Below are positions 1 to 35,198 of a DNA stretch of 35,751 bases, in pieces. The stretch covers positions 1 to 35,751 of the forward strand of contig JBEKXP010000005.1 of NCBI GenBank assembly GCA_049511815.1, read 5' to 3'. Source of the stretch: Dehalococcoidia bacterium (GTDB taxonomy: Bacteria; Chloroflexota; Dehalococcoidia; DSTF01; JALHUB01). The notes below the pieces were generated by a model, which saw only the letters and a program-made list of their open reading frames with translations, was not told the origin of the DNA and searched no databases. The translations under genes were made by a program, and so were the position numbers. Numbering within the stretch: the stretch's first letter is position 1; the number at the start of each line of letters is the position of its first letter.

Positions 1-102
1 CGCCCGCCTGCCGGTAGGCAGGGGTTTCAACCCGCAGTGCTGTTCCCCTCTTCCGGCCGCTCCCCCCTCAAACGGCAACGGCGACGGCCACCGGTAGGGC
101 GG

Positions 103-2622: not shown

Positions 2623-2669
2623 GCACCTCCGGAAGGTATTACTCCTAGCACGCTAGCGGGGATGGCGGA

Positions 2670-2698
2670 ATAATATAACGTCCCCAAAGGCTTGTCAA
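2670..2698 (-). promoter_or_regulatory. Candidate sigma70-type promoter of the YVTN gene
   Basis: On the minus strand: TTGACA (2698-2693), a 17-nt spacer, then TATTAT (2675-2670). This lies about 45 nt upstream of the ATG at 2622. Confidence 0.5.
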
Positions 2699-3050
2699 GG
2701 GGCAATCAGGAAGCCATGCGTTATCAACCTGAAGGTTACCCCCTTAGGATTCGCCTCTCCGCCTTGGGTGCCACCAGCCGCTTCCAAATCCCCCGCGCCT
2801 CTGCTATCCTCTCCTCGACAACTCCCGAAAGGCATCCAACGCCATGTTTACCCGTCCGGGAACTCCGCCTGCCCGTCTGGGCCAGCTTGTCCGCGCTTGC
2901 CCCTCTGGGCTCGCCGAAAAACGTGCATTCTTGCGTTACTTTCCCAGATTCGAAGCGGCACCACTCAGATTCAAGAAACAACGCAAAAAACAATTGAATT
3001 CAATGGGTCAATCAAGCGCCCCTCGGTCGGCCGCCGCATAGCCCGCCGTT

Positions 3051-11296: not shown

Positions 11297-11936
11297 CCTC
11301 CACCTTCACACCAACTTCTCGCCGGACAGCCTGATCACGCCGGAAGGACTGCTCACGCGTTGCCTGAAGCTCGGCATCAACTGCATCGCCGTCACAGACC
11401 ACAACGTGCTCGAAGGCGCGCTCATGATGCAGACCATCGCGCCGTTCCGCGTCATCGCCGCCGAAGAGATAAAGACGACGGAAGGGGAGGTGATCGGCTT
11501 CTTCCTGCAGGAACGCATCCCGTCCGGCCTCTCGCCCGAAGAGACGGTGCGACGGATCAAGGCGCAGAACGGCCTCGTCGGCGTGCCGCATCCCTTCGAC
11601 CGCCTGCGTCGCGAGCCGCTGCGCCAGGCGGCCCTCGAGCGCGTCCTGCCGCACATCGACATCATCGAAGCGTTCAACGCCCGCGTCACGATAGGCTCGG
11701 ACAACGCCCGTGCCGCCGCCTTCGCTGCCGAGCACGGCATGGCCTGCAGCGCCGGCAGCGACGCCCACTCGCTCGGGGAAGTCGGCCGCGCCTGCGTGGA
11801 GATGGACGACTTCGAGACGCCGCAGGAGTTCCTCGACTCGCTTAGGAAGGGGAAGATCGACGGCAAGTGCAGCTCACCGTTGGTGCACGCAATAAGCACC
11901 TGGGCCAAGCTGCGTCGCCGCGTCGTCCAACGCTAG
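11280..11936 (+). CDS. PHP-domain metal-dependent phosphoesterase
   Basis: Motifs ADLHLHTNFSPDS, AVTDHN, PHPFD and GSDAHS are present. Confidence 0.8.
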   Translation: MMLKADLHLHTNFSPDSLITPEGLLTRCLKLGINCIAVTDHNVLEGALMMQTIAPFRVIAAEEIKTTEGEVIGFFLQERIPSGLSPEETVRRIKAQNGLVGVPHPFDRLRREPLRQAALERVLPHIDIIEAFNARVTIGSDNARAAAFAAEHGMACSAGSDAHSLGEVGRACVEMDDFETPQEFLDSLRKGKIDGKCSSPLVHAISTWAKLRRRVVQR

Positions 11937-15660: not shown

Positions 15661-15723
15661 TCAAAGGGAGAACTGCGGCGCATAAGCGCTGGAGGAGATA
15701 TCGTAGAGGAACGTCACGGCCAT

Positions 15724-16383
15724 CTGCGGACGGTCGCCATCGATGGCCCCGTCGCGTCGGGCAAGAGCGCGGTGGGCAGCCTGCTGGCAAGGCGCCTCGG
15801 TTTTCGCTTTCTGGACACCGGTGCCATGTACCGCGCCTTCACCTGGCTGCTCCTGGAAAGGGGCATCGGGCCGCAAGACGAAGAGGCGATCGGCGGCCTG
15901 GCGCAAGGGGTTAGTATGACGGTGAGCACGACCGCTGACGAGCAGAGCCAAGTCCACGTCGACGGCGTCGAGGTAACGGCGTTCCTGGTTCGGCCGGAGG
16001 TCGAGGCGAACGTGTCCGACGTGTCGCGGCTGTCCGTGGTGCGGGAGGCGATGGTGCGCATCCAGCGCGAAGAGGCGCAGCTAGGCGAAATCGTCGTGGC
16101 CGGGCGCGACATCGGCACCGTAGTGCTGCCGGACGCCGATCTCAAGGTCTACCTCGACGCCCCGCGGCTGGAGCGGGCGCGGCGTCGCTGGGAGCAGGCA
16201 CGGTTCCGCGGGGAGACCACCCTGAGTATCGCGAGCGTCATGCAAGAGCTGGAGCGCCGCGACGCCATCGACAGCGGGCGCGAGCTGTCGCCGCTGCGGC
16301 CGGCGGCGGACGCGCTGATACTACAGACAGACGGCCTCAGCCTGGAGCAGGTCGTCGAGAGAATACTGGCGTTGGCGCGGTGA
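15724..16383 (+). CDS. cmk: Cytidylate kinase; the P-loop lies upstream of the first canonical start codon
   Basis: In-frame VAIDGPVASGKSAVGSLLARRLGFRFLDTGAMYRA. The only ATG/GTG/TTG is the GTG at 15772, which follows the Walker A. A CTG at 15724 is the best-placed start. Confidence 0.8.
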   Translation: MRTVAIDGPVASGKSAVGSLLARRLGFRFLDTGAMYRAFTWLLLERGIGPQDEEAIGGLAQGVSMTVSTTADEQSQVHVDGVEVTAFLVRPEVEANVSDVSRLSVVREAMVRIQREEAQLGEIVVAGRDIGTVVLPDADLKVYLDAPRLERARRRWEQARFRGETTLSIASVMQELERRDAIDSGRELSPLRPAADALILQTDGLSLEQVVERILALAR

Positions 16384-25111: not shown

Positions 25112-25145
25112 CTTCGTTCACCTCATGTATCGGAGGCCGCTTGCC

Positions 25146-25526
25146 CTACTCTCGTTGGTGGCGTCGGAACAACCGGCTGAGGAGACCTGGCGCACTCGAT
25201 CGAATCGTCTTCTCGCCCGGATCTGGCGGTGCCGTGTCGATGTCAATCAAGACACCGCGAGTAGGCTTGTCGCGTGTTCCTCCAGTAATGCGCGCTATTT
25301 TGGCCTCCAACCGCCTCCCCTTGTCCATCAACTCCGCAACCCACGCAGCATTGTCCCGGGACAGATACGCGATCTGGTCTCCGTTTTGCCTCAGCACCGC
25401 GATCGCATTTTTGTCGTAGGGATTGTTCGGCTCCCTTTTGAGGATTACGTGCTCTCCCTCACGGCAGCGCCTTATTGTGTCCTGCCTGTAAGACTCGCCA
25501 CCCAGGTTGCATGTATAAGTGCCCAT
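25146..25526 (-). CDS. Stand-alone HIRAN-domain protein (126 aa)
   Basis: HIRAN-like pattern: GESYRQDTI...GEHVILKREPNNPYDKNAIAVLRQNGDQIAYLSRDNAAWVAELMDKG. Confidence 0.65.
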   Translation of the reverse strand: MGTYTCNLGGESYRQDTIRRCREGEHVILKREPNNPYDKNAIAVLRQNGDQIAYLSRDNAAWVAELMDKGRRLEAKIARITGGTRDKPTRGVLIDIDTAPPDPGEKTIRSSAPGLLSRLFRRHQRE

Positions 25527-25662
25527 GGTGATCTCTATGTCGGAAGGCGTGAACTGCGTGACATGTCATTCCGGCGTTTTGCGGACGCTGAATCGGAATC
25601 GACGACAATAGGCCCCCTCTGAGGATTCATATGCTCAAAGGAGGCCATTCGCATTCGATTCC

Positions 25663-25739
25663 TGGTAGCGCATGCGGGATTCGAACCCGCGATCTCCGCC
25701 TTGAGAGGGCGGTGTCCTGGGCCGCTAGACGAATGCGCC
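25663..25739 (-). tRNA. tRNA-Glu (anticodon CUC), CCA encoded
   Basis: Hand-folded cloverleaf: acceptor GGCGCAT/ATGCGCT (G1-U72), D arm GTCT/GGAC, anticodon stem CCGCC/GGCGG with loop CTCTCAA, T arm GCGGG-TTCGAAT-CCCGC. Confidence 0.9.
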
Positions 25740-25794: not shown

Positions 25795-25840
25795 GCTGGC
25801 TGGGGAGGGAGGATTCGAACCCCCGCATACGGATCCAGAG
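25795..25840. repeat. att core, left copy: an orphan 3' fragment of tRNA-Gln
   Basis: 46/46 identity to 35123-35168 by direct alignment. No 5' tRNA half is adjacent. Confidence 0.9.
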
Positions 25841-25959
25841 ACCGCCCCTGCCCATTATAACCAGCGGCAACTACTTGCCGCCAATACTTCATCGTATCTG
25901 TTTTTCGACTCTTCGGGTCGCCGTAACGGTACCTAACGGCAACTAGTTGCGGCCTTTGC

Positions 25960-25978
25960 GTTAGCATTTCCGTTAGCA
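25960..25978 (+). repeat. Paired GTTAGCA motifs (candidate arm-type recombinase sites), left end
   Basis: The left copy reads gttagcatttccgttagca. A similar pair, gttagcattctgttagca, lies at 35048-35065 in the same orientation. Confidence 0.5.
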
Positions 25979-26321
25979 GAAAGTCGTCGGCCGGGGTGTC
26001 GTGCGCTGGTGGCCTCTGGCAGTGATTCTCATCCGCCCGCATCCTTGCGGGCGTGCTATCAGTATCGTTCAGATGACCCCCCATCAACAACTTGACAAAT
26101 TATCCACTATTCGCCGGTTACGACTGTTCCGGCACTCCCCACGAAACCCCCGACCGACACGAGACTAAGACCAGGGAGGCGGGGCCAGTCTGTTAAACCT
26201 GTGGTGGCAGGAGAGAGAGGAAACGGCCCCAAACCTCCCGGCTGCAACGGCAACCTCACGGCGCCACCGGAAGGCCGGGGCCATCAAGACAAACGCCGTG
26301 AGTTACCGTTGCGAGGCGACT

Positions 26322-26576
26322 CTACAACTTGCCCTTGCGTCTGTCAAGCCTCTGAGAGCCCGATCTGGCCGTTTCCTCGAGCTGGGCAGTATCAGCACTA
26401 TCGGCCGCTGTCGCGCGTATGCTCACGATCGGCGCCGGCGGGCTCTGCATGACATCGTTGAGCGTCATCGAACCGTTTCCTGCTGCGACCTTGCGCCCGC
26501 AGATCAGGCAATGCGCGTCGAGGTCTTCATCAAGATACCAGCCGTGGCCATGACAATGCCCGCACCTGCTCGGCAA
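26322..26576 (-). CDS. Small Cys/His zinc-ribbon protein (84 aa, hypothetical)
   Basis: CGHCHGHGWYLDEDLDAHCLICG is present. A TTG start at 26576 follows SD AGGAGAGAG. The longer track ORF has no SD. Confidence 0.4.
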   Translation of the reverse strand: MPSRCGHCHGHGWYLDEDLDAHCLICGRKVAAGNGSMTLNDVMQSPPAPIVSIRATAADSADTAQLEETARSGSQRLDRRKGKL

Positions 26577-26608
26577 GGTCTCTCTCCTGCCTTGTGAACG
26601 CCTGGGCG

Positions 26609-26635
26609 TTTCGCTCCTAGTAACTAGGAGCGAAA
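26609..26635. promoter_or_regulatory. Strong 12-bp-stem hairpin between the tape-measure-like gene and the Zn-ribbon gene
   Basis: tttcgctcctag-taa-ctaggagcgaaa is a perfect inverted repeat. Confidence 0.5.
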
Positions 26636-26755
26636 AACGGGGCGGGAGGCTAGACGGCAAAATAGCGCCCTGCCGGGGGAGCGGTAGGAGTGACCGCTCA
26701 TTATGGCAGCGCGGCCGTGGAACTCGACTGCGCCAGCACACCCCGGCAGGACCCT

Positions 26756-28309
26756 CTATCCTCGCGCCTCCAACTCGGCCCAGATGTCCCTTGTCGAAAG
26801 CGTCTGCGGCCGAATGTTGATCGTCCCGCCGTAGATCGTCAGATGGTGGCCGCCCATGTCCTTTGACTCGGCATTGCTGTAGACACGACTTCCACCGGGT
26901 AGGGCTACGGTCTCAGGGCCAGCTTCGCCGACTTCGAAGAGCCCGCTGTAGGGCGTCATACCGCCGCTGGCATACTTCAGTTTCGGGCCACCAGGCACCG
27001 TCTCCTTTTCGCCACCACCGCCGCCGCCGAACAGATCCTCCAGCTTTGAGACGCCGGGAATCTTGCCGAGCGCGTCCCCAAGGTCGCCCACGTGACCGAG
27101 AAGATCCTCAATCTTGCCACCCAGGTCCGGTATTGACCACTCAAGCCCGGCTACGATGTCCGCCCAGCCCCCCATCGGAATGTTCAGCAGATCGAGAGCA
27201 TCGGTGAGCAGCGGGAGTGTGCTAACGGCGAGATGATCAACCGAAATCCCGAGGTTGTGGGTCGCTATGTCGTAGGAAGTCGCCTTCTGGTTCGCGTTGT
27301 CGAACTCAGCGGCGGTATCGGCCGTCTGCTGGTTCACCGTGGGCAGCAAGTCGCTATAGTTCTGAACTACCGGCATCAGCGAGGTCCTGAGCCCGCGCGA
27401 GAATATCGTGGATATGTAGTCCGCCGCGAGCGTGTTGTCGTGCAGGCCGACGAGCTTGGTCATGATCTGATCGAAGATGTCGATGGTGGGGAGCGCGTTC
27501 CCGTTGGTGTCGAGCATCGTAACGCCGAGATGGGCCATTGTTGTCGCAAACGCCGAAGAGTCGGTCTTCCCCGACTGAGCCGCCAACGCGTAGGTCTGCA
27601 CCTTGTTCGTCAGCATCGTCACACCCAGCTGGGCAGCCCCCAGGGAAGAGTGAACGTCAGCCAACATATTGCTCCAGAAAGCCGTCTCTTCGGCGGAGGC
27701 CTGCGTAGCGTCCTCGAACTGCATGGCGGTGTTCTCGAAGTTGCCTCCGAGTACACCGAGAGCACCGACGGCTGTAATCCCCGCCGCCGCGATGCCCAGA
27801 ATGCCGCCAGCAGCATCATCAAGACTGCCGGAGTTAACCAAGTCATCAAGGGCACCTCCCATGCCCGAAATGCCGCCCACGACCGGCCCGAGGTCGCTGT
27901 CTAGGCCACCAAGGGCGCTGCCAAGTTCGCCAGCGCCGGACGCCGCGCCCCCAAAGCCGCCGCTGGCATCGTCAGCCGAACTTGCAGCACCAGCGAGCCC
28001 CGAATCAGCCGCGCTACCAGCGCCGGAAAGCGCCTCCAGTTGACTGGCGGTCTCATCACTGACGACGCCAAGATTGCCAACTGAAGCGTAGGCTTCTTCC
28101 GCGCCCGCTTGCGCTGCCAGTCCGCCAGCTCCGGCGTCCTGCGCGGAAGCGCCGAAGTCGTCGAGTTGGCCTTGGGCGTCTGCTAGAGACGATTGGTCAA
28201 CCGCCTCCATTGCGCTCTGAGTGTCGCCCAGCTTGCCGTTCAACTCCTCAAGCGCCGCTTGAGCATCACCGGAGTCGGCCGTGATGTTGAGGGATAGGTC
28301 CATAGTCAT
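26756..28309 (-). CDS. Tape-measure-like protein (517 aa)
   Basis: The N-terminal half is Ala/Gly/Ser/Asp-rich and helical. A hydrophobic Gly-rich segment (GGILGIAAAGITAVGALGVLGG) is present. The C-terminal motif GLFEVGEAGPETVALPGGSRVYSN resembles one that, from memory, recurs in tail tape-measure proteins. SD AGGAGG lies 5 nt upstream. Confidence 0.55.
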   Translation of the reverse strand: MTMDLSLNITADSGDAQAALEELNGKLGDTQSAMEAVDQSSLADAQGQLDDFGASAQDAGAGGLAAQAGAEEAYASVGNLGVVSDETASQLEALSGAGSAADSGLAGAASSADDASGGFGGAASGAGELGSALGGLDSDLGPVVGGISGMGGALDDLVNSGSLDDAAGGILGIAAAGITAVGALGVLGGNFENTAMQFEDATQASAEETAFWSNMLADVHSSLGAAQLGVTMLTNKVQTYALAAQSGKTDSSAFATTMAHLGVTMLDTNGNALPTIDIFDQIMTKLVGLHDNTLAADYISTIFSRGLRTSLMPVVQNYSDLLPTVNQQTADTAAEFDNANQKATSYDIATHNLGISVDHLAVSTLPLLTDALDLLNIPMGGWADIVAGLEWSIPDLGGKIEDLLGHVGDLGDALGKIPGVSKLEDLFGGGGGGEKETVPGGPKLKYASGGMTPYSGLFEVGEAGPETVALPGGSRVYSNAESKDMGGHHLTIYGGTINIRPQTLSTRDIWAELEARG

Positions 28310-28318
28310 GTCAGCCTC

Positions 28319-28657
28319 CTAGTTAAGCACCTTACCCGGCGGCGGCGGCGCGCCGGTGATGACGCCGCCGGTGCTCCCGTAGTCGCCCGCATGGGGAAGC
28401 GCGTTCGTCGCATTGCCGATGACCTGCTGTCGCTCGCGTTCCGGCAGGCCGTGTCTTGCCTCAAAGGAACGCCCATCGACCAGGAGGTGCTGGTGTTCCT
28501 CAATCTCGAACTTTGTCTTGGCGTCGAGTTGGCGGTAATCGACGCGCACGGCGCCCACGCGCGGCACAGCGCCGATAGTCTTGATGTCGTCAATGACGTT
28601 GGCCAAGCAGCCCGGCGCCATCGTGATCAAGTGCATGTTCTGCTGTCCCTTAGCCAT
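28319..28657 (-). CDS. Hypothetical protein (112 aa)
   Basis: SD GAGGAGG lies 9 nt upstream of the ATG. The gene overlaps the upstream gene by 8 nt. Its stop lies inside the SD of the next gene. Confidence 0.55.
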   Translation of the reverse strand: MAKGQQNMHLITMAPGCLANVIDDIKTIGAVPRVGAVRVDYRQLDAKTKFEIEEHQHLLVDGRSFEARHGLPERERQQVIGNATNALPHAGDYGSTGGVITGAPPPPGKVLN

Positions 28658-29210
28658 GAGCGACTACCTCCTCTGTGATTCGGCGGCGAATCTGTCCGCC
28701 GGGAAAGCCCTCACGCTCTGCGAGCCCGAGCGCCTCTAGTTCGGTAAGTCTTTCGACCTGCGCCGTCGCTGCGGTAGCGACTCTGTTCTGGCGACGATTG
28801 AGAAGCGTAACACGCTCCGCAAACAGCGATTGGAACTTGGCCTCTGCCGGGCCGATCTCTTCGTCAATCTCGTCTAGTCTTTCACTGTCTACTTCATCCT
28901 GGGCAGCATCGAGGGCGACGTTGAGGTCATCTACCCGGAGTTTCACCACGTCGCGTTGGGCCAGAATCCCCCGCCGCTGGCCGGCGAGTTTGCCGAGCGC
29001 CGCCTCGATCCTTTCCACTGTGCTCTCGGCCTCCAGATCGTCGCAGCCCCACCTCAGGCGCTCCGCCTCTAACCGCTGGCCAAGCAGGACTCGCTCTTCG
29101 GCGTCCACTGACGCGAGCCGGTCCTCAAGCTTGCGGCTCTCCTTCTCTGCCTGCCCGAGTTCTCCCTGAATTGTGCCGACTTCCTTCTCTGCTTTGGACA
29201 TATCCTTCAC
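28650..29210 (-). CDS. Coiled-coil protein (186 aa; scaffold- or Sid-like role is speculative)
   Basis: Heptad-rich, highly charged sequence (AEKEVGTIQGELGQAEKESRKLEDRLASVDAEERVLLGQRLEAERL...). The start is GTG at 29210 or ATG at 29201. Confidence 0.6.
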   Translation of the reverse strand: MKDMSKAEKEVGTIQGELGQAEKESRKLEDRLASVDAEERVLLGQRLEAERLRWGCDDLEAESTVERIEAALGKLAGQRRGILAQRDVVKLRVDDLNVALDAAQDEVDSERLDEIDEEIGPAEAKFQSLFAERVTLLNRRQNRVATAATAQVERLTELEALGLAEREGFPGGQIRRRITEEVVAHG

Positions 29211-29213
29211 CCC

Positions 29214-29636
29214 CTATGGCGTTCCGCCGGACTGAATGTTTGCCCACGAGTGAGTAGCATCGACCCAGAAGAAGACTCTTCCCACCTTCAGATCGTTGGT
29301 TGTGGTCGAAATGAGAGCGACCGTGCCGGAGTCCAACAGATAGACGGCACTCCCGCAAGATTGCTGGCTCAGTGGCTCCGTGTTCATCAAGAAAGGCCCC
29401 CCCGACTGTACCTTGCACTTCTTCACACCAGCGGTTGTACTGGTGATGTTTTCGTCAGCAACGCCACAGTAGATGCAGGACGCCGTGTCCGCGCCGACAA
29501 CGAGATAGCCGGTTGACGGGTCAATCATGACGTGTGAGCCTTTGTAGATTCGCTGGTTCGCGGCGACAAGGTAGCTCGTGTAGACCGGCGAGCACTTGAC
29601 AACGACATCGCGGTCTGCAACCAGTGCTGGGGTCAT
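29214..29636 (-). CDS. Beta-rich 140-aa protein, tentatively DUF2190-like (head decoration/cement family)
   Basis: The pattern IYKGSHVMID..G......GVADENI....G...CKVQSGGPF.......G.AVYLLDSGTV.....LKVGRV recalls DUF2190. SD GGGGAG is present. An ATGA overlap joins it to the upstream gene. Confidence 0.5.
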   Translation of the reverse strand: MTPALVADRDVVVKCSPVYTSYLVAANQRIYKGSHVMIDPSTGYLVVGADTASCIYCGVADENITSTTAGVKKCKVQSGGPFLMNTEPLSQQSCGSAVYLLDSGTVALISTTTNDLKVGRVFFWVDATHSWANIQSGGTP

Positions 29637-29818
29637 CGCTCACTCCCCTTCGCCCGCTCATCATCCTCTCGGGTCTCAAGGTAGCGCTTCGCTTCGGCCA
29701 GCCTTTCAGCGCCGACGGCGATCTCTGTCTCAGAGGCACCGGCCGCCTCAAGATTGGCGAGTTCGTCTTCGGCTGAACGGACACGATATGCCGCGTCTTC
29801 AAGTACGGTCCGCGTCAT
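29633..29818 (-). CDS. Small acidic helical protein (61 aa, hypothetical)
   Basis: SD GGAGGG lies 6 nt upstream. ATGA start/stop overlaps occur on both sides. The longer track ORF (to 30016) overlaps the 78-aa gene out of frame. Confidence 0.5.
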   Translation of the reverse strand: MTRTVLEDAAYRVRSAEDELANLEAAGASETEIAVGAERLAEAKRYLETREDDERAKGSER

Positions 29819-30051
29819 CGTCTGCCCTCCAGTAGGTGCGCTTCCATTTTCTCCGCCCAAGCGTCGTTTTCGGACACGACGACCCCAATCCACGGTTGAT
29901 TGCAGGTGTGCACGATGCTCTTCTCCTGTTCGGTAAGTTCGACCGTCCTCACCGGCGCATCGTCGGCAAGATATCTGTCCGTCGCCCGCCGCAACCCCTC
30001 TGTCAACAGACGCCATGCCTCGTTGGTGATGATCATTGTGTTTCTACTCAT
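29815..30051 (-). CDS. Hypothetical protein (78 aa)
   Basis: SD AAGGAGG lies 6 nt upstream. An ATGA overlap joins it to the 211-aa gene. Confidence 0.55.
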   Translation of the reverse strand: MSRNTMIITNEAWRLLTEGLRRATDRYLADDAPVRTVELTEQEKSIVHTCNQPWIGVVVSENDAWAEKMEAHLLEGRR

Positions 30052-30683
30052 GATTGACCTCCTTCGCTTATGATGCTTTCTGCTTCCTGAATCAGTTGTT
30101 GCTCGGGTGTCGGCTGGCGCCCCTCTGTAGACGGCGCCACCTGCTGGTCATCGGCCAGCACGGTGTCTATTAACCACAGCCAGCACTTCGGAGGCATCGC
30201 GAAGTTCGGATCATCAAGGTTGCAGGCGCCGCCGCCACGAACGTCAGGGCGCGCTGGTAGCGCCCGCTCGATGGTGATGAGCATTGAGTCAATCTTGTCG
30301 ATGGCCTTCGACCGCCGGCTCTCGTTGCCAGAAGTGCCGAGAATGCCTTTGCGGTCGCACTCGATGAGCAAGTTCTCTTTCATGATCCGCCGCTCCGCGA
30401 GCATCCGCAGCAGGTTGTCCGTATCGTCGCCTAGCCACGGCCGGCGCTGGCGCTCCAGGCGAACCAAACGGCGCACTCTCTTGCCCAATTTGGCCCTTAT
30501 ACTGGCGGCATTTGCGGGACTGGCATTCAGGCCATGTTTCAAGGCGGCCGTCTGCCGCTGGGCGAGCTGGACCGGACTTAGTGACGGCGGATTATCAGTC
30601 CGTTTGCTGGCCTCTTTTAGGTTCGTTTTCGCCCGCCTGCTAACGCGTTGCTCACGGGATGTTTGCGAAGTAGTTACAGTCAT
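30048..30683 (-). CDS. Hypothetical basic protein (211 aa); a small-terminase-like or DNA-binding role is speculative
   Basis: The N-terminal third is Arg/Lys-rich. It is the first long gene of the coupled chain. No diagnostic motif was recognised. Confidence 0.55.
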   Translation of the reverse strand: MTVTTSQTSREQRVSRRAKTNLKEASKRTDNPPSLSPVQLAQRQTAALKHGLNASPANAASIRAKLGKRVRRLVRLERQRRPWLGDDTDNLLRMLAERRIMKENLLIECDRKGILGTSGNESRRSKAIDKIDSMLITIERALPARPDVRGGGACNLDDPNFAMPPKCWLWLIDTVLADDQQVAPSTEGRQPTPEQQLIQEAESIISEGGQS

Positions 30684-30707
30684 AGGTTCGCCTTTCGTTC
30701 TGCGCGT

Positions 30708-30941
30708 TCACGTCTGTATGAACAGCACGCGCCCCTTTGGAGCCAGTAAAGCCGCTAATTTGGCATAGACTTCAGGCGCGATGTGCCGGGTGTAAAATGC
30801 CACGTCACGCTTACTCGGCGGGAAGCGTTCCCACTCACAGCGCGGCTCATAGTGAGGCAAATCGCCGGGAGACACTTCCAGCACGGCGTCAACGGAGTTG
30901 CCCGAAGGTAGAGTCCAACTTCCCAGCAGTAGGCGTCTCAT
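30708..30941 (-). CDS. Hypothetical protein (77 aa)
   Basis: An ORF with a GGAG motif 7 nt upstream. No family was recognised. Confidence 0.4.
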   Translation of the reverse strand: MRRLLLGSWTLPSGNSVDAVLEVSPGDLPHYEPRCEWERFPPSKRDVAFYTRHIAPEVYAKLAALLAPKGRVLFIQT

Positions 30942-30955
30942 CTCAGCACTCCGAC

Positions 30956-31002
30956 GGTTTCTGTTGGTGATCCAGTACTATGATGTAGTACTGGCAGAAA
31001 CC
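30956..31002. promoter_or_regulatory. Compound palindrome in an AT-rich gap (candidate ori, operator or terminator)
   Basis: ggtttctg...ccagtacta-tgatg-tagtactgg-cagaaacc, followed by tttttc. Hand count for 30961-31020 gives about 40% G+C. Confidence 0.5.
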
Positions 31003-31092
31003 TTTTTCTCTATTCTCAGATTCAGGGGGTGCCGCTTCCCCGTTTCTTTCTGCCGGAACTACTTTCCTAGTAATAGAGAGCAACAGCATTTC

Positions 31093-32886
31093 TTACAGAC
31101 TCCCCCAGTAGCGGAACGGCTTGCCGCGTTTCCCCTCGCCGCACCTTTGCACCTTGCCTTCCGTCATCAAGTCTTTCAGCGCCCCTTGCAGAGTGCTGGG
31201 CAGAATGTCAGCGACAGCGAACTTGGCGTCGGCGAGTGCCACGTCAGTCTTAGAGCCGAGCGCCCGATACTCGATGTCGAGCTCGATAACCAGCGTGTCG
31301 GGCGTCTCATCGAAGCGTGAGAGGGCATGCAGCACGCGGACGTTAGGCTTGGCGTTTCCCTCAGAGCGCTTGAGTGACAACACGATATCGGCGGCGGCGG
31401 CAAATGCCGTGCTACCACGTCCTGACTCGCCGACTTCCCCGCCGCCCTTGCGCTCGTGGCGCACCTGGAGGACGGCCAGGCCCAAGGCAGCGGCGAACAG
31501 TAGCGGCTCCATAGCCTCAAGGCCGGAGCCTGATTGATTCTCCTCTTCTCCCTTCAGTCCGGCGAATTGCGAGAGCGTGTCCACAACCAGCAGGCGGGCG
31601 CCGACACGCTGGCACTCGGCAACGGCGGCGTCAACGATATCCGGCCATTTCATGCCCTTCGTATCGTGGTAGTAGAGGACGTGTAGCGACTCACATTCCA
31701 ACAGCCCGGCACGGCGGAGGTGTTCGCGGAATGTTCGGGGGCGTTCCTCTGTGAGATAGACAACGGGTGTTCCTGCCGCCTGCTCGCCTAGAAACTCCCC
31801 GCCGTTAAGACAGGCGGCTATCATGCGCATGATCAGGGTGGTTTTCCCGCTGGCCTTCAACTTGCCGGTTAGTTCTGTCACACTCCCGGCGGCAAGCCAC
31901 GGCTTCGCGATCCACTCGACTTGAGGCGAGACTTGGGCGGCGATCTCAGCGCCGGTCCAGAACCGGAGCGGGGGCGCCTCTTTGTTGTCCGCGTTCCCCC
32001 GCTTTGCCGCTTCCTTTTTCCAGAAGTCGGAAACCATGCGGGCGACTTCAGCGGCGGGCAGCGGCGGTGGGCCACAGCGGGCCACGTTCCAATTCAAACT
32101 GGCGTCTAGGGCCGCCTGCTGGCCGTCCTGCCAGAAGCGTGCCACCGAGAGCCCGACAACCCGCTTAGCCTTCTCATGGCGCGTTCCTACGGGCGCGTCC
32201 TCTGCCAGGAGACGGGCAGCGCTGTCGCCGCCGACGATAAGCCCGTCCTCTTCGGACTTGCCGTCACGTGGTAGCCGAACATCATTCGGGTCCGTCAGCG
32301 TCAGCGCGTCTAGGAATTCATCAACTGTCCAGGGCGTGCCGGTGGTAGGGTCAAGCATGACGCGGCGCCCGTTGCCGTTCGGCCCGAAGTAGGGCAGGTT
32401 AACGTAGTTGCCGAAGCCGCCCGCGTCTACGCTGTCCTGTTTCGGGAAAACCTCGGTATCGGCTGGCAGTCCGGCGTCGGCTATCGCCCTTGCCGCCACT
32501 CGCCGCGCCCAAGCCGCCTCTACGGGCTCCCGGTAGAACACCCAGACGTGATGGCCCTTAGACTTGCTTCTCTCAATGAACGGGCAGCAGCCGAGGCGAC
32601 GTAGGGAATCATACAGCTTCAGCGCCTTCCCCCATTGCACGAGGTCGGGCTCCCCCTCAAGGTCAAGGTCGATGCATTCCCAGAAGCAAAGGTTGCCGTC
32701 AGTCACGGGGTAGACGCCAATCGCGTTTTCGCCCGCCAGGTGGCGCGCCATAACTTCGAGCGTCAGGGGTTCCTTATTGCAATAGCCCTCGCCCTCGCCG
32801 TAGCAGTCGCGTCGCCCGTCGAAAAGCGTCAATAAGGCCCCGGCGACCTCGATTTGCGATTCGTCAAGGAAGGTTGATACGGGCAT
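31093..32886 (-). CDS. Replication protein: AEP primase-polymerase, PriCT-like linker and RecA-like (AAA_25/DnaB-like) ATPase
   Basis: AEP motifs CIDLDLEG, SKSKGHHVWVFY and EVFPKQ...GNYVNLPYFG are present. Walker A is GKLKASGKTT and Walker B is LLVVDTLSQF. Confidence 0.8.
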   Translation of the reverse strand: MPVSTFLDESQIEVAGALLTLFDGRRDCYGEGEGYCNKEPLTLEVMARHLAGENAIGVYPVTDGNLCFWECIDLDLEGEPDLVQWGKALKLYDSLRRLGCCPFIERSKSKGHHVWVFYREPVEAAWARRVAARAIADAGLPADTEVFPKQDSVDAGGFGNYVNLPYFGPNGNGRRVMLDPTTGTPWTVDEFLDALTLTDPNDVRLPRDGKSEEDGLIVGGDSAARLLAEDAPVGTRHEKAKRVVGLSVARFWQDGQQAALDASLNWNVARCGPPPLPAAEVARMVSDFWKKEAAKRGNADNKEAPPLRFWTGAEIAAQVSPQVEWIAKPWLAAGSVTELTGKLKASGKTTLIMRMIAACLNGGEFLGEQAAGTPVVYLTEERPRTFREHLRRAGLLECESLHVLYYHDTKGMKWPDIVDAAVAECQRVGARLLVVDTLSQFAGLKGEEENQSGSGLEAMEPLLFAAALGLAVLQVRHERKGGGEVGESGRGSTAFAAAADIVLSLKRSEGNAKPNVRVLHALSRFDETPDTLVIELDIEYRALGSKTDVALADAKFAVADILPSTLQGALKDLMTEGKVQRCGEGKRGKPFRYWGSL

Positions 32887-32893
32887 CGCGCGT

Positions 32894-33094
32894 TTAGGCG
32901 CCCTCCGCTTGCGGCGTGCTTCCGTTCAGCAGGGCCTCTAGTCGCGCGCGGGGGATCAGAATCCTTCGGCCGATACGGAGTGAAGGTATGTCGCCGCGAT
33001 AGACGCCCTCATATGCGCTCCGAACCGACAGTCCGAGGAGGTGAGCTGTCTCCTCAACAGTAAACACTGGCTTCGCTTCAACTGCCGCTACCAT
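32894..33094 (-). CDS. Excisionase-family (MerR-like) helix-turn-helix DNA-binding protein
   Basis: FTVEETAHLLGLSVRSAYEGVYRGDIPSLRIGRRILIPRARLEALL. Confidence 0.8.
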   Translation of the reverse strand: MVAAVEAKPVFTVEETAHLLGLSVRSAYEGVYRGDIPSLRIGRRILIPRARLEALLNGSTPQAEGA

Positions 33095-33121
33095 TTGCTA
33101 CCCCTTCCCCTGTTGCACCCC

Positions 33122-33150
33122 TTGACAAAGAGGCGCGCCTTCTGTATCCT
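33122..33150 (+). promoter_or_regulatory. Candidate promoter of the 206-aa gene/integrase operon
   Basis: TTGACA (33122-33127), a 17-nt spacer containing the palindrome aggcgcgcct, then TATCCT (33145-33150). Confidence 0.55.
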
Positions 33151-33277
33151 GATGCCATGGTTGGTTGTAATGACGCGCAAACACTTCATGGTGACATCGT
33201 AGCAGGTGCTCCCAATCCGTCAAGGGCGGTGCGCGCCACTTGCAGCGGCCATAACGCCAAAACGATAGGGGGCGATT

Positions 33278-33898
33278 ATGGGGCGACCGAGGACTGAAGA
33301 ATATTGGATACGGCCCATCAATTACCTAGCGGAGAACGATAAGAAACTCGGGCCAAAGGCCATCCACGCGATACTTGAGAAGAGTGCAACTGACGCGGGT
33401 CAGTCCCATCGTCTCAAGAGCATGCCGAGCCTCAGAACAATCGCGCGCAGAAAGCAGGAATATCTCGACCGCGCGAGCGAAGAGGAGCGCCAGCGCAACC
33501 GCCATGTCCACTGGCCAGACGACATGGGCCTCGTGCTGCCATGGGAGGCAGGCCCCGCCGTGCTAGAACTCCTTAAGTGGCGCCGGGATCACTGGCTGGC
33601 TCGCCCCGCTGTTACTGAAGCCTATTGGTTTTGGCGGGTTACGGCAGTCGTGCCAGCGGCGAACTTCGATTATCGCTTGAAGGCGGCAAGGATTCTTGGC
33701 AGAGACGATGGGCAGATGAAACGGGCCGTCGAGCTATGGCTGGTTTACGGGGGTCCGTTCGCGGGGCCGGATCGGGTGGTCTACGAGGATCGCCTGAGGG
33801 GTACGCCCGAGTTCCCCGGCGACGTGGAAATCGACATAGAGGGGAAAGACATCATAGACGCCATTTACGAGGGCATGGCGAAAGGAGGCCAGTGGTGA
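33278..33898 (+). CDS. Hypothetical protein (206 aa) translationally coupled to the integrase
   Basis: SD-like GGGGG lies 5 nt upstream. Its TGA stop overlaps the integrase GTG (GTGA). A possible HTH occurs near PSLRTIARRKQEY. No family was recognised. Confidence 0.6.
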   Translation: MGRPRTEEYWIRPINYLAENDKKLGPKAIHAILEKSATDAGQSHRLKSMPSLRTIARRKQEYLDRASEEERQRNRHVHWPDDMGLVLPWEAGPAVLELLKWRRDHWLARPAVTEAYWFWRVTAVVPAANFDYRLKAARILGRDDGQMKRAVELWLVYGGPFAGPDRVVYEDRLRGTPEFPGDVEIDIEGKDIIDAIYEGMAKGGQW

Positions 33899-35037
33899 AA
33901 GGCAGCGTAAAGAAGCGCGGCAAGACGTGGCGGATCATCGTTGACATCGGGCGCGACGAGAACGGCAAGCGCCAGCAGAAATGGTATAGCGGCTTCGCCA
34001 CGCGAAGGGCAGCCGAAGCGAAGCTAACCGAGATAAAGGCGTCCCTCCAAAGCGGCGAGTACGTAGAGCCGAGCAAGCGGACGCTTGGGGCCTTCCTTGT
34101 GAAAGAATGGCTGCCCTCTATCGCGGCGTCAGTCCGGCCGTCAACCTCCACGGCTTACAAGATGATATGCGACAAGCGTATCGTGCCCACGCTGGGGAGC
34201 GTGCCCTTGCAGCAACTCAGCGCCGACCAGCTAAACAAGTTGTACGCGCAACTGTTGGCAAACGGGCGCACCAAAAGCAAAGGTGCCCTCAGCCCGCGCA
34301 GCGTGCGCTACGTCCATGCCACCATCCACAAGGCTTTGTCCGACGCCGTAAAGTGGCAGAAGATTCCGCGCAACGTCGCCGACAGCGCTACGCCGCCGAG
34401 ACGCCAGTCGAAAAAGCCGAAGACATGGACGGCAAGCGAGCTCCGGACCTTCCTCGAACACGTCGAGGGCGGCCGTCTCTATGCCGCCTACCTACTCGCT
34501 GCCAGCACGGGCTTACGCCGTGGCGAACTGCTAGGCTTGCGCTGGCGTGACGTAGACATGGAAGCGGGCAGCCTGGCCGTTGTGCAAACACTCTTACAGG
34601 TCAATAACAAACTCGACTTCGGTACGCCGAAGACGGAGAAGGGAAGCCGAAACGTCTGGTTAGACACTCACACAGTTGCCGCCCTACGGTCCCACAGACG
34701 GACACAGGTGGCCGAAAGGCTGGCGTGGGGGCCGGAATACCAGGACAACGACTTGGTTTTCGCCCGTGAGGACGGTACGCCCATACACCCGGACGGCTTC
34801 GGCCGTACCTTCGCCCGTCACGCTAAAGCGGCGGCGCTGCCCACTATCCGCCTTCACGATCTCAGGCACACCCATGCGACGCTGGCGCTTCAGGCGGGCA
34901 TTCCCGCCAAAGTGGTCAGCGAACGGCTCGGCCATGCGAGCATCAGCATTACGTTGGATATCTACAGCCACGTGCTACCGGGGATGCAGGAAGAGGCCGC
35001 GCAGACGGTTGCCGACTTGGTGTTTGCCAACGGCTAG
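33895..35037 (+). CDS. int: Tyrosine-type phage integrase
   Basis: N-terminal SAM-like arm (KKRGKTWRIIVDIGRDENGKRQQKWYSGF) is present. Catalytic motifs are GLRRGELLGLRW, HDLRHTHATLAL and LGHASISITLDIYSHV. SD AAAGGAGG lies 6 nt before the GTG at 33895. Confidence 0.9.
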   Translation: MKGSVKKRGKTWRIIVDIGRDENGKRQQKWYSGFATRRAAEAKLTEIKASLQSGEYVEPSKRTLGAFLVKEWLPSIAASVRPSTSTAYKMICDKRIVPTLGSVPLQQLSADQLNKLYAQLLANGRTKSKGALSPRSVRYVHATIHKALSDAVKWQKIPRNVADSATPPRRQSKKPKTWTASELRTFLEHVEGGRLYAAYLLAASTGLRRGELLGLRWRDVDMEAGSLAVVQTLLQVNNKLDFGTPKTEKGSRNVWLDTHTVAALRSHRRTQVAERLAWGPEYQDNDLVFAREDGTPIHPDGFGRTFARHAKAAALPTIRLHDLRHTHATLALQAGIPAKVVSERLGHASISITLDIYSHVLPGMQEEAAQTVADLVFANG

Positions 35038-35047
35038 GAAGACCCAT

Positions 35048-35065
35048 GTTAGCATTCTGTTAGCA
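35048..35065 (+). repeat. Paired GTTAGCA motifs (candidate arm-type sites), right end
   Basis: gttagcattctgttagca; see the left-end copy at 25960-25978. Confidence 0.5.
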
Positions 35066-35084
35066 AAAGCCTCGCAAGCAAGCA

Positions 35085-35110
35085 GAAAGGCCCGCTTTCA
35101 CGGGCCTTTC
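35085..35110 (+). terminator. Hairpin downstream of the integrase gene
   Basis: gaaaggcccg-ctttca-cgggcctttc has a 10-bp perfect stem and lies 48 nt after the int stop. The T-tract is weak. Confidence 0.5.
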
Positions 35111-35122
35111 TAGATTCGATTT

Positions 35123-35168
35123 GCTGGCTGGGGAGGGAGGATTCGAACCCCCGCATACGGATCCAGAG
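35123..35168. repeat. att core, right copy (inside intact tRNA-Gln)
   Basis: 46/46 identity to 25795-25840. Confidence 0.9.
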
Positions 35169-35198
35169 TCCGCTGTCCTACCACTAGACGACTCCCCA
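35125..35198 (-). tRNA. tRNA-Gln (anticodon CUG), CCA encoded
   Basis: Hand-folded cloverleaf: acceptor TGGGGAG/CTCCCCA (U1-A72), D arm GTCT/GGAC, anticodon stem GCGGA/TCCGT with loop CTCTGGA, T arm GGGGG-TTCGAAT-CCTCC, discriminator G. Confidence 0.9.

Follow-up and report, generated by a model that had tools for sequence, protein, structure and literature searches.

A site-specific integrative element has, with near certainty, entered the tRNA-Gln(CUG) gene of a Dehalococcoidia bacterium, and its gene content suggests that it is a phage satellite functionally of the type of PICIs (phage-inducible chromosomal islands) or P4, a reading to which we give a probability of about 0.65. The element lies in the window, by which we mean the whole 35,751-nt stretch of contig JBEKXP010000005.1 that was analysed, and, unusually for a satellite, it appears to carry capsid-decoration and shortened tail-ruler genes of its own. 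As a tentative extension, which we hold to be rather doubtful, it might belong to an undescribed group of Chloroflexota satellites with a backbone of integrase (int), Xis and AEP primase-helicase and interchangeable virion cassettes, whose member in the window, in place of a capsid of its own, would supply a gpD-like protein and a short tape-measure protein (TMP) and so re-specify head stability or size and tail length in particles made from helper parts.

The insertion and its empty sites

Direct alignment confirmed the perfect 46-bp repeat described in an earlier note on this DNA (25795-25840 is identical to 35123-35168), and a 46-nt exact repeat within 36 kb cannot be a product of chance. 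Beyond this core the match runs to 51 nt with a single mismatch (A at 25841 versus T at 35169), and the base preceding the repeat is A at the left copy and T at the right. ARAGORN and Rfam detect only two tRNAs in the window, tRNA-Glu(CUC) and tRNA-Gln(CUG), with the anatomy and spacings that the note had given: the right repeat starts 2 nt on the 5' side of the anticodon and reaches 2 nt past the encoded CCA, and the left one is an orphan 3' fragment situated 55 nt away from tRNA-Glu. The insert between the cores measures 9,282 nt (25841-35122), and the integrase ORF stops at 35037, 85 nt short of the right repeat, again as previously described. The integrase recombined an attP site that carried 46 nt copied from the tRNA 3' part with the chromosomal gene, leaving an intact tRNA at attR and the orphan at attL.

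The search for empty sites that the earlier note had proposed for its attL/attR interpretation bears that interpretation out. A metagenome scan recovered 12 contigs in which tRNA-Glu adjoins an uninterrupted tRNA-Gln, and the genes flanking the insert in the window are shared by three of them: L007, with flanks 93-98% identical to the window, and L013 and L014, which are ~80% identical with conserved synteny (GluRS, tRNA-Gln, tRNA-Glu, a threonine-aldolase-like gene and PolA). In the empty-site contigs the core sequence is present once, within the intact tRNA-Gln, with the left and right flanks running on directly from either side of it. Because such sites exist, three with the flanking genes of the window and one of these with 93-98% identical flanks, we are dealing with a true insertion, and the locus combines the hallmarks of genomic islands: a repeat of the tRNA 3' part with an intact tRNA on one side and an orphan fragment on the other, a tRNA-proximal tyrosine integrase, and empty sites in relatives. 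That there might be no mobile element at all, the repeat being a local duplication of tRNA-Gln and the intervening genes ancestral, has nothing in its favor except the repeat itself; a simple duplication of the tRNA fragment is ruled out because relatives have empty sites, three of the 12 with conserved flanking synteny, and the deviating composition and the integrase adjoining the tRNA likewise contradict this vanishingly improbable alternative.

As regards composition, the insert differs from its flanks both in windowed G+C and in tetranucleotide usage, the two measures that the earlier note had recommended computing. Its G+C content is 60.7% versus 66.6% in the left flank (0.609 +/- 0.019 versus 0.668 +/- 0.020 in 1-kb windows), and windows wholly inside the insert lie 0.29-0.36 from the flank profile in tetranucleotide distance, as against 0.12-0.22 for the flank, excepting a repeat-protein gene at 1-3000. 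The three spot counts of G+C reported earlier were exact (0.567, 0.40 and 0.70) but unrepresentative, the true gap being 6 points rather than the implied 13-30. The 40% spot coincides with the AT-rich gap downstream of the primase gene.

It is plausible that the element is recent and possibly still mobile. The attP junction was absent from IMG/VR and no circular contig occurred among those fetched; the failure to find an excised circle or a virome copy in these sets counts against the satellite reading. The insertion itself is a textbook case; its confirmation mainly provides a clean example of attB/attL/attR polymorphism within an uncultured lineage of Dehalococcoidia.

Organization of the element

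The genes form two divergent units (Table 1): the integrase gene with a co-oriented 206-aa gene, and a long operon that runs from a Xis/AlpA-like HTH gene through the AEP primase-AAA_25 gene and the AT-rich gap to small or uncharacterized ORFs interspersed with the decoration and TMP homologues. No pseudogene debris is seen: every ORF is intact, and neighbouring ORFs lie close together or overlap.

Table 1. Features of the integrative element and its attachment sites in the window
Feature	Position	Strand	Evidence or remark
tRNA-Glu(CUC)	25663-25739	-	ARAGORN, Rfam
attL core	25795..25840	.	orphan 3' fragment of tRNA-Gln, from anticodon loop through CCA and 2 nt beyond
Tandem GTTAGCA pair	25960..25978	+	120 nt inward from attL; candidate integrase arm-type binding site
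84-aa ORF	26322..26576	-	last gene of long operon; called in identical JGI contig; 45% identical to 75-aa terminal ORF of L006
Shortened TMP homologue, 517 aa	26756..28309	-	alignment to protein of phage contig L024
112-aa ORF	28319..28657	-	8-nt overlap with upstream ORF
Predicted coiled-coil protein, 186 aa	28650..29210	-	sub-threshold coiled-coil family matches only
Capsid decoration/cement homologue, 140 aa	29214..29636	-	lambda gpD / phage 21 SHP-like; PHROG 1731 'virion structural protein' E 2e-17
61-aa ORF	29633..29818	-	called in identical JGI contig; 4-nt overlaps with both neighbours
73-78-aa ORF	29815..30051	-	gene call; no Pfam match
All-helical protein, 211 aa	30048..30683	-	no family match
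77-aa ORF	30708..30941	-	46% identical to ORF of tRNA-Pro element L020 (tblastn)
AT-rich gap	30942..31092	.	directly downstream of primase-helicase gene; 40% G+C at 30961-31020
AEP primase fused to AAA_25 (RepA/DnaB-like) helicase, 597 aa	31093..32886	-	PF22548 E 7e-25, PF13481 E 4e-19; primase PHROGs
HTH_17 protein, 66 aa, excisionase / AlpA-like	32894..33094	-	PF12728 E 5e-12; excisionase PHROGs
Divergent regulatory region	33095..33277	.	sigma-70-like sites 33122-33150 (+) and 33223-33196 (-), consensus matches only
206-aa ORF	33278..33898	+	upstream of int, overlapping it; 37% identical to same-position ORF in L006
Tyrosine integrase, 381 aa	33892..35037	+	Arm-DNA-bind_4, Phage_int_SAM_3 and Phage_integrase domains
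Tandem GTTAGCA pair	35048..35065	+	58 nt inward from attR; candidate integrase arm-type binding site
Perfect 10-bp-stem hairpin	35085..35110	.	GAAAGGCCCG-CTTTCA-CGGGCCTTTC, between int and attR; read from sequence
attR core	35123..35168	.	forms 3' part of intact tRNA-Gln
tRNA-Gln(CUG), integration target	35125-35198	-	ARAGORN; Rfam tRNA 63 bits; 3' 44 nt inside core

The domains of the integrase, an arm-binding one among them, mark it as a genuine tyrosine recombinase. The heptamer GTTAGCA occurs six times in the window, always within the insert, and two tandem pairs sharing the same orientation lie near opposite ends, with none expected in 100 shuffles; given the Arm-DNA-bind_4 domain of the integrase, these pairs are candidate arm-type sites. 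The hairpin between int and attR is likely a terminator for int and/or the rebuilt tRNA-Gln. The 206-aa protein has no recognizable domain and no family match in Pfam, PHROGs and further profile searches, and its location, corresponding to that of Stl, makes it a candidate master repressor. On the opposite strand, the HTH_17 gene heads the long operon.

The replicase of the element is, by its domain matches, the fusion of an AEP primase with an AAA_25 helicase. It lacks 22 conserved C-terminal residues that are retained in contig L001 and in all relatives; comparison with a nearly identical copy found in another sample shows an in-frame deletion, and because of this deletion the present copy of the element may be crippled. 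The AT-rich gap, which holds a palindrome with 8-nt arms (CAGTACTA-N5-TAGTACTG), is a candidate replication origin by analogy with the pri-rep-ori arrangement of SaPIs.

Seven ORFs and the presumed repressor have no homologues of known function detectable by profile and homology searches, including Pfam and PHROGs. Among them, the 112-aa ORF has no match in Pfam, PHROGs, NCBIfam or PADLOC, and the 186-aa coiled-coil protein, which has no match in the phage collection, might speculatively play a scaffold-like role. A single-sequence model of the 211-aa protein (pLDDT 52) gave Foldseek matches that are insignificant, several of them to small terminase subunits, a weak hint that it may be one. 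No family match to terS, cpm, ppi or rpp was obtained in the element, the similarity of the 211-aa protein to small terminases being insignificant, and no packaging gene or pac/cos site was recognized. Pfam, PHROGs, NCBIfam and other profile searches detected no capsid, portal, terminase, tail-tube or lysis family; Pfam, NCBIfam and PADLOC detected no conjugation, mobilization (relaxase, FtsK-like Tra) or known defence family. A complete or recently inactivated tailed prophage was also considered and rejected, since the profile searches showed no terminase, portal, major capsid, tail tube or lysis cassette.

Two homologues of virion proteins

Phage synteny and a fold model together point to the 140-aa protein being a gpD-like capsid decoration homologue. 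Its homologues in IMG/VR-listed phage contigs are 55-70% identical, and their genes always lie between a Mu-like protease/scaffold gene and a Mu-like gpT major capsid gene, a synteny found in five independent phage loci (L002, L023/L024, L025, L026-L028); Alteromonadaceae phage B23 has a homologue in the same gene position. The top fold matches of its AlphaFold2 model (pLDDT 68) in the PDB and BFVD are all to capsid decoration proteins (gpD, SHP and other cement proteins), with weak E-values (0.01-0.1 versus the PDB) from a model of medium confidence. Both the scaffold/protease-capsid gene position and, on this model, the fold are those of gpD/SHP-like decoration proteins.

The 517-aa protein itself has no match in Pfam, NCBIfam or the TMP PHROGs, its only direct match being a weak tail-fibre/lysozyme PHROG (E 2e-4). 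Its kinship to tape-measure proteins is nevertheless suggested, indirectly yet consistently, by homologues that are encoded where tape-measure genes lie or that match TMP profiles. A 738-aa protein of phage contig L024 is encoded at the tape-measure gene position and matches the TMP PHROGs (E 6e-10); its residues 1-320 share 33% identity with residues 1-372 of the 517-aa protein, and its residues 680-722 align with residues 449-503. Furthermore, the 517-aa protein has 152 remote relatives of 84-3772 aa, and nine of the ten tested (535-1157 aa) match TMP PHROGs. Relative to the phage protein, both conserved termini are kept and the middle alone, ~280 central residues, is missing, so that a functional short ruler fits better than random truncation.

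The decoration and TMP genes both have homologues in one Mu-head-like phage lineage and stand in the same relative order there (decoration upstream of TMP), which is what would be expected had a Mu-head-like temperate phage at tRNA-Gln lost most of its structural and lysis genes and decayed to a cryptic prophage that retains int, xis, the replicase, the decoration gene and a truncated TMP gene. The shortness of the TMP and the deletion in the replicase would fit such decay, and since TMP-carrying satellites are barely documented the TMP gene could equally point to a phage remnant. However, the tight packing of intact ORFs, the absence of pseudogene debris, the perfect att repeats and a TMP with both termini in the pattern of a functional short ruler argue against it, as does the fact that neither the genes separating the two phage homologues nor those upstream of them show similarity to the phage genes in those positions. 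In view also of the related elements described below, we consider decay from a prophage improbable.

Related elements with different virion genes

Six relatives of 8.4-13.9 kb are integrated in tRNA-Lys, tRNA-Leu, tRNA-Phe or tRNA-Pro, with repeats of 41-53 nt. Identities of the backbone proteins reach 53-57% for the integrase (against those of L006 and L030), 44-46% for Xis, 49-61% for the primase and 37% for the 206-aa ORF. The tRNA-Pro element L020 has a primase of a different kind and shares with the element in the window the 77-aa ORF (46%) and the TMP homologue (49%). The cargo of the relatives consists of other morphogenesis genes, namely 1) a Terminase_4 small terminase (TerS) with an HK97 capsid, 2) an HK97 capsid alone, 3) a TerL-like gene or 4) TerL with a TMP homologue; an HK97-fold major capsid gene is found in the backbone relatives L005, L006 and L030/L031, the latter two also encoding the Terminase_4 small terminase. 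Because six relatives span this size range with varied morphogenesis cargo, small size is the native state of the family; six independent elements of the same 8-14-kb size, with similar layouts and different morphogenesis genes, speak against the element in the window being a decayed prophage.

The same comparison bears on a third possibility, that of an integrative-plasmid or IME-like island that is never packaged, whose decoration and TMP genes are decoys sabotaging the assembly of infecting phages as defence cargo. The element does have its own replicase and integrase and no recognizable packaging gene, its decoration and TMP homologues could poison helper assembly, and one account (PMC11364771) describes island-encoded proteins that interfere with tail assembly. 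Against this stand the lack of detected conjugation, mobilization or known defence families and the TerS and major capsid or TerL genes of the backbone relatives, which make sense for packaging and not for defence alone; we therefore regard an unpackaged island as unlikely.

Under the favored satellite reading, the 206-aa gene next to int would hold the long divergent operon silent until a helper phage with a Mu-like head module, by infection or induction, derepresses it. The element would then be excised by Xis/AlpA and Int, replicated by the AEP primase-helicase from the AT-rich region just downstream of its own gene, and packaged in virions made by the helper. The decoration protein, the coiled-coil and small proteins and the short TMP may modify these virions (capsid stabilization or size, tail length) or divert helper assembly. 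Besides the missing excised form, points that weigh against the reading are the lack of a recognized packaging gene or pac/cos site and of an identified helper, the seven ORFs and presumed repressor with no homologue of known function, the weak E-values of the decoration fold matches and the deletion in the replicase.

Comparison with known satellites

Proteobacteria, Firmicutes and, more recently, Actinobacteria have well-described phage satellites; our literature searches returned no paper on phage satellites in Chloroflexota or Dehalococcoidia. PICIs (SaPIs and Gram-negative PICIs) have int at one end, a master repressor (Stl) that a helper-phage protein relieves, a divergent Xis/AlpA-type regulator, pri-rep and an origin, and SaPIs have capsid-remodelling and packaging genes downstream. 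The element shares with them 1) the ~10 kb size class, with int at the end beside att and a gene in the Stl position co-oriented with it; 2) the divergent operon with a Xis/AlpA-type HTH, a primase-helicase and an AT-rich region at the place of the SaPI origin; 3) the absence of lysis genes and of almost all structural genes, save the decoration and TMP homologues; and 4) small genes grouped downstream, at the place of the capsid-remodelling and packaging genes of SaPIs. It differs in having no recognized Stl, Cpm, Ppi or TerS homologue, in the AEP-AAA_25 fusion as replicase, in its Chloroflexota host and in carrying decoration and TMP homologues.

The relatives L005, L006 and L030/L031, with their HK97 capsid with or without Terminase_4, resemble a partial head module of the capsid-forming PICIs (cfPICIs), which encode their own major capsid, portal, protease, head-tail connectors and a terminase subunit. 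The element in the window differs: no capsid, portal, protease, connector or terminase gene was detected in it, and it carries a tail gene, while the tails of cfPICIs are described as helper-derived. With P4-like satellites it shares an integrase, an AlpA-type HTH and a primase-helicase. P4 encodes the capsid decoration protein Psu and the size-determining scaffold Sid, possible functional analogues of the 140-aa and 186-aa proteins respectively; however, Pfam and PHROGs gave no match to the families of Psu, Sid, Delta or the P4 alpha primase, and structurally the decoration protein belongs to the gpD/SHP/DUF2190 type.

Like the EPIP satellites of Mycolicibacterium and PLE11, for which a TMP-like gene has been proposed, the element is small and appears to encode its own tape-measure protein. 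In EPIPs the integrase is of the serine type, TerS, head-tail adaptors, a scaffold and a major capsid gene are encoded, and the tails are longer; TMPs are stated to be otherwise not present in satellites (preprint PMC12822802). The element in contrast uses a tyrosine integrase and lacks a capsid gene, and its TMP is the shorter one when compared with the phage homologue. The IME1 elements of Dehalococcoides, from the same bacterial class, likewise show tRNA-adjacent integration, a tyrosine recombinase and an archaeo-eukaryotic-type primase-helicase. They are 21-28 kb long (~23 kb by definition) and without tailed-phage genes, start with a XerCD-type recombinase, carry a Cro/C1 repressor in terminal position and encode a large metallophosphoesterase-like CDS, a primase-helicase and a pI-like ATPase; the proposal is that they represent viruses of filamentous or budding type (preprint 10.64898/2026.09.15.751708). 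The present element, at 9.3 kb, has none of the IME1 domains save the primase-helicase and tyrosine recombinase.

If the satellite reading is true, the family would represent a modular backbone that swaps virion cassettes (TerS and capsid, TerL, decoration and TMP), and the element would provide the second or third satellite-encoded tape measure, a feature that the 2025 preprint (PMC12822802) calls essentially absent. No helper phage was identified for this Dehalococcoidia host; the same reading would suggest that Mu-head-like phages act as helpers in this class, which has been little studied, and the backbone relative L032/L033 was found in the same two samples as the phage lineage with the decoration and TMP homologues.

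Insertion at tRNA-Gln

With near certainty, the 9,282 nt between the two 46-nt cores represent an element acquired by site-specific integration at tRNA-Gln, because uninterrupted versions of this site exist in relatives. The earlier note had read an attL/attR pair from a perfect 46-nt direct repeat; direct comparison bore out this identity, and the match reaches 51 nt if one mismatch is allowed, the base before each copy being different. Its anatomy of the locus also held: the right copy begins 2 nt before the anticodon of tRNA-Gln and extends 2 nt past the encoded CCA, the left copy is an orphan 3' fragment of tRNA-Gln separated from tRNA-Glu by 55 nt, and 85 nt lie between the integrase stop and the right copy. 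ARAGORN and Rfam located the two tRNAs of the window, and the Rfam search of the window recovered nothing else. Crossing over took place inside the 46-nt block, which is the usual expectation for tRNA integration of the anticodon-loop type.

The scan of JGI metagenome contigs required that, 55-85 nt after a tRNA-Glu, the core be continuous with the 5' part of tRNA-Gln; an occupied site cannot match this pattern, and 12 contigs did. In the empty-site relative L007 the flanks, which are 93% (right, end of GluRS) and 98% (left, threonine-aldolase-like gene) identical to those of the window, are joined directly via one intact tRNA-Gln. Two further empty-site relatives, L013 and L014, are ~80% identical to the window and share this synteny, with PolA beyond. 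These sites support the insertion reading and refute a duplication of a tRNA fragment. The window spans a complete contig (35,751 nt) from an NCBI MAG that bears the label Dehalococcoidia bacterium, and the same occupied locus recurs at 99.99% identity in L001, a JGI contig from a different sample.

The G+C content of the insert is 60.7%, as against 66.6% in the left flank, and the distributions in 1-kb windows scarcely overlap. The three spot values of the earlier note are numerically exact, but the 13-30-point gap that they imply is not representative, the real gap being ~6 points. The tetranucleotide profile is likewise shifted (0.29-0.36 in windows wholly within the insert versus 0.12-0.22 in the flank). 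The strongly deviant profile of the first 3 kb coincides with a gene for an NHL-repeat β-propeller protein, whose repeat composition probably explains it; there is no sign of another mobile element in that region.

Between the threonine-aldolase-like gene and tRNA-Glu, beside the tRNA hotspot, lie ~520 nt of 56% G+C that encode a HIRAN-domain protein (PF08797; it also matches the PADLOC candidate PDC-M03B). A hairpin-bearing spacer of 60-80 nt stands in their place in L007, L013 and L014, and the stretch is, on this comparison, a second lineage-specific insertion.

Coordinates and layout of the features discussed (positions in the window unless a contig is named; genes of the element are listed in the order integrase to attL)
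Feature	Coordinates	Strand	Remarks
Deviant tetranucleotide region	1-3000
NHL-repeat gene	103-2622	-	839 aa
HIRAN stretch	25140-25661
HIRAN-domain gene	25146-25526	-	126 aa
tRNA-Glu(CUC)	25663-25739	-
attL core	25795-25840
TAACGG hexamers	25924-25939		two direct copies, 10 nt apart
Insert	25841-35122
Hairpin	35085-35110		perfect, 10 bp, between int and attR
attR core	35123-35168
tRNA-Gln(CUG)	35125-35198	-
Tyrosine integrase	ends 35037	+	381 aa; Arm-DNA-bind_4, SAM_3 and catalytic domains
206-aa ORF		+	overlaps integrase start; no detectable family
Divergent region			183 nt, between the + pair and the - gene string; two promoter-like sites
HTH_17, excisionase/AlpA-like		-	66 aa; heads gene string
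Replicase (AEP-primase/AAA_25-helicase fusion)	31093-32886	-	597 aa; 66 nt missing at 31191/31192, present at L001 3855-3920
AT-rich gap			151 nt; follows replicase gene; contains palindrome
ORFs of 77, 211, 73-78 and 61 aa		-	after AT-rich gap
ORFs of 140, 186 (coiled-coil), 112, 517 and 84 aa		-	end of gene string
Predicted attP junction			…CTAGATTCGATTT + 46-nt core + ACCGCCCCTGCC…
Predicted attB junction			…GCGCTGTTTGAA + core + TCCGCTGTCC…
Attachment repeats of L005 element	L005 2107-2147 / 11367-11407		5' half of tRNA-Lys(CUU) + 3-4 nt upstream
Attachment repeats of L020 element	L020 1797-1840 / 15715-15758		5' half of tRNA-Pro(GGG) + 3-4 nt upstream
Tandem-repeat arrays	L003 10257-12546		174-177-nt units
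Decoration paralogues	L025 9548-9973, 10001-10423		tandem

Gene content of the element

The genes of the minus-strand string form two blocks parted by the AT-rich gap, within which they are separated by tiny gaps or overlap by 4-8 nt. All six copies of the heptamer GTTAGCA in the window fall within the insert, with tandem pairs in the same orientation lying 120 nt inward of attL and 58 nt inward of attR, where none is expected by chance; these pairs may well be arm-type integrase sites. In the attL arm a further protein may bind at the TAACGG hexamers, the reverse complement of CCGTTA within the nearby GTTAGCA repeats.

No capsid, portal, protease, terminase, tail-tube, lysis, conjugation or known defence families were detected in the insert, and the sole PADLOC match there, to the PrimPol domain of the replicase, does not amount to a defence system. 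With their defining genes absent, an intact prophage, a cfPICI, a P4-like satellite, an IME1-like element and an AICE-type conjugative element were rejected. An exact-protein look-up returned no record for the integrase, the 206-aa and 211-aa proteins had no match among PDB sequences, and the 517-aa, 211-aa and 186-aa proteins had none among ~50,700 sequenced phages. A single-sequence AlphaFold2 model of the 211-aa protein (pLDDT 52) gave insignificant Foldseek matches and offers just a hint of a small terminase. For seven ORFs the searches yielded no functional clue.

The primase-helicase has no relative in IMG/VR, and its alignment retrieved one distant match, in a Proteobacteria MAG, from 185,579 GTDB species genomes; the family is essentially absent from reference genomes. 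The 22 residues missing in frame from the window copy belong to a C-terminal winged-helix-like region and are conserved in all family members; the full protein has 619 aa. Either the window copy is a true deletion variant, which may replicate poorly, or the gap is an artefact of MAG assembly. A contig with a primase relative 59% identical (L003) carries, downstream of its element-like region, long tandem-repeat arrays inside ORFs of 545-700 aa, which bear no relation to the insertion.

Homologues of virion proteins

The 140-aa protein matches PHROG 1731 ('virion structural protein', E 2e-17) and has nine database homologues, some of them 55-70% identical and on plainly tailed-phage contigs, two of which are in IMG/VR. 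In the phage contigs the homologue always stands between a Mu-like protease/scaffold gene and a Mu-like gpT major capsid gene, as it does in Alteromonadaceae phage B23. The best fold matches of its AlphaFold2 model (10-sequence alignment, pLDDT 68) are capsid decoration or cement proteins, namely those of YSD1, HFTV1, FCWL1, phage 21 (SHP), lambda (gpD), Pam3, T1 and TW1; their E-values are modest, yet the matches are uniform, and BFVD returned 'capsid fiber', DUF2190 and 'head decoration protein'. On the phage contig L025 two decoration paralogues stand in tandem and share 51% and 70% identity with the 140-aa protein.

The 517-aa protein has a single direct family match, a weak one to a tail-fibre/lysozyme PHROG (E 2e-4). 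Its residues 1-372 align at 33% identity (tblastn E 6e-32; BLASTP E 2e-33) with residues 1-320 of a 738-aa protein of phage L023/L024, and residues 449-503 with 680-722; the phage protein is in tape-measure position and matches several tape-measure PHROGs. An exhaustive HMMER search recovered 152 relatives of 84-3772 aa; ten of these (535-1157 aa) were tested, and all but one matched tape-measure PHROGs. Because of this alignment and these matches, we identify the protein, on sequence grounds, as a tape-measure homologue that has kept both ends and lacks ~280 central residues. The closest homologues of the 140-aa and 517-aa genes belong to one and the same phage lineage.

A family of small elements borne by tRNA genes

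Related elements are bounded by repeats at other tRNA genes. Their small size, clean att sites and partial, variable sets of virion genes indicate that these are properties of the group, rather than products of decay in the window copy.

Related elements (percentages are identities to the window element)
Contig	Repeat spacing	tRNA	Repeat	Shared proteins	Morphogenesis genes
L006	8.4 kb	tRNA-Lys 3' half	41 nt, 90% identical	int 53%, 206-aa ORF 37%, Xis 44%, primase 61%, 84-aa ORF 45%	Terminase_4 TerS, HK97 capsid
L030/L031	9.7 kb	tRNA-Leu	53 nt, perfect	int 57%, Xis 46%, primase 59%	TerS, HK97 capsid
L005	9.3 kb	tRNA-Lys 5' half	41 nt, perfect	primase 56%	HK97 capsid
L032/L033	11.0 kb	tRNA-Phe	49 nt, perfect	primase 54%	TerL-like gene
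L020	13.9 kb	tRNA-Pro 5' half	44 nt, perfect	77-aa ORF 46%, tape-measure homologue 49%; primase different	TerL, tape-measure homologue

The L005 and L020 elements have XerC-like integrases and, their repeats being on the 5' half, lie 5' of the tRNA and cut it from its native upstream region, an unusual sublocation.

The phage genes of the window element would also be accounted for by a decayed prophage; however, the operon is intact and compact, the neighbouring genes lack similarity to phage genes, the tape-measure termini are retained and the other elements of the family are similarly small, all of which make this quite unlikely. An integrative replicon that is not packaged and carries anti-phage decoys as cargo is unlikely too, as the TerS and capsid or TerL genes of the relatives point to packaging.

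The element as a probable phage satellite

The element has an autonomous replicase gene and two virion-protein homologues, and judging from its genes it cannot build a virion by itself. By analogy with PICI and P4, we consider it a phage satellite, with a probability of roughly 0.65. Its layout resembles that of PICIs, whose accessory families were not detected in it; unlike cfPICIs it has no capsid set of its own, and Psu, Sid and Delta of P4-like satellites are all absent. IME1 of Dehalococcoides differs in its size (~23 kb), its pI-like ATPase and its lack of tailed-phage genes. Apart from the mycobacterial EPIPs and, tentatively, PLE11 (PMC12822802), no satellites are reported to bear tape-measure genes; EPIPs, in contrast to the element, have another integrase type and capsid genes. 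No description of a phage satellite from Dehalococcoidia or Chloroflexota turned up in our literature searches. The insertion event itself is ordinary, and the interest of the locus comes from what the element is likely to be: a phage satellite of Chloroflexota that carries a decoration gene and a short tape-measure gene and belongs to a modular family.

The life cycle of such a satellite might comprise: 1) repression, lifted when a helper phage triggers derepression. 2) Excision by Xis and Int. 3) Replication that starts in the AT-rich gap following the replicase gene, as it does in SaPIs. 4) Packaging of the element DNA into helper-derived particles, where the decoration protein would act as Psu does in P4, the 186-aa coiled-coil protein might serve as a scaffold, and the short tape-measure protein would either disturb the tails of the helper or, as a working ruler, shorten the tail by ~40 nm (~280 residues at 1.5 Å each). 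Neither the attP junction (35122/core/25841) nor the 44-nt tRNA-Gln core had a match in IMG/VR, and none of 13 related contigs has the terminal overlaps of a circular contig. Two samples (JGI 3300037339 and SRR12667318) yielded both the L032/L033 element and the Mu-head-like phage L024/L023, which has the decoration and tape-measure homologues; element and phage are a possible satellite-helper pair.
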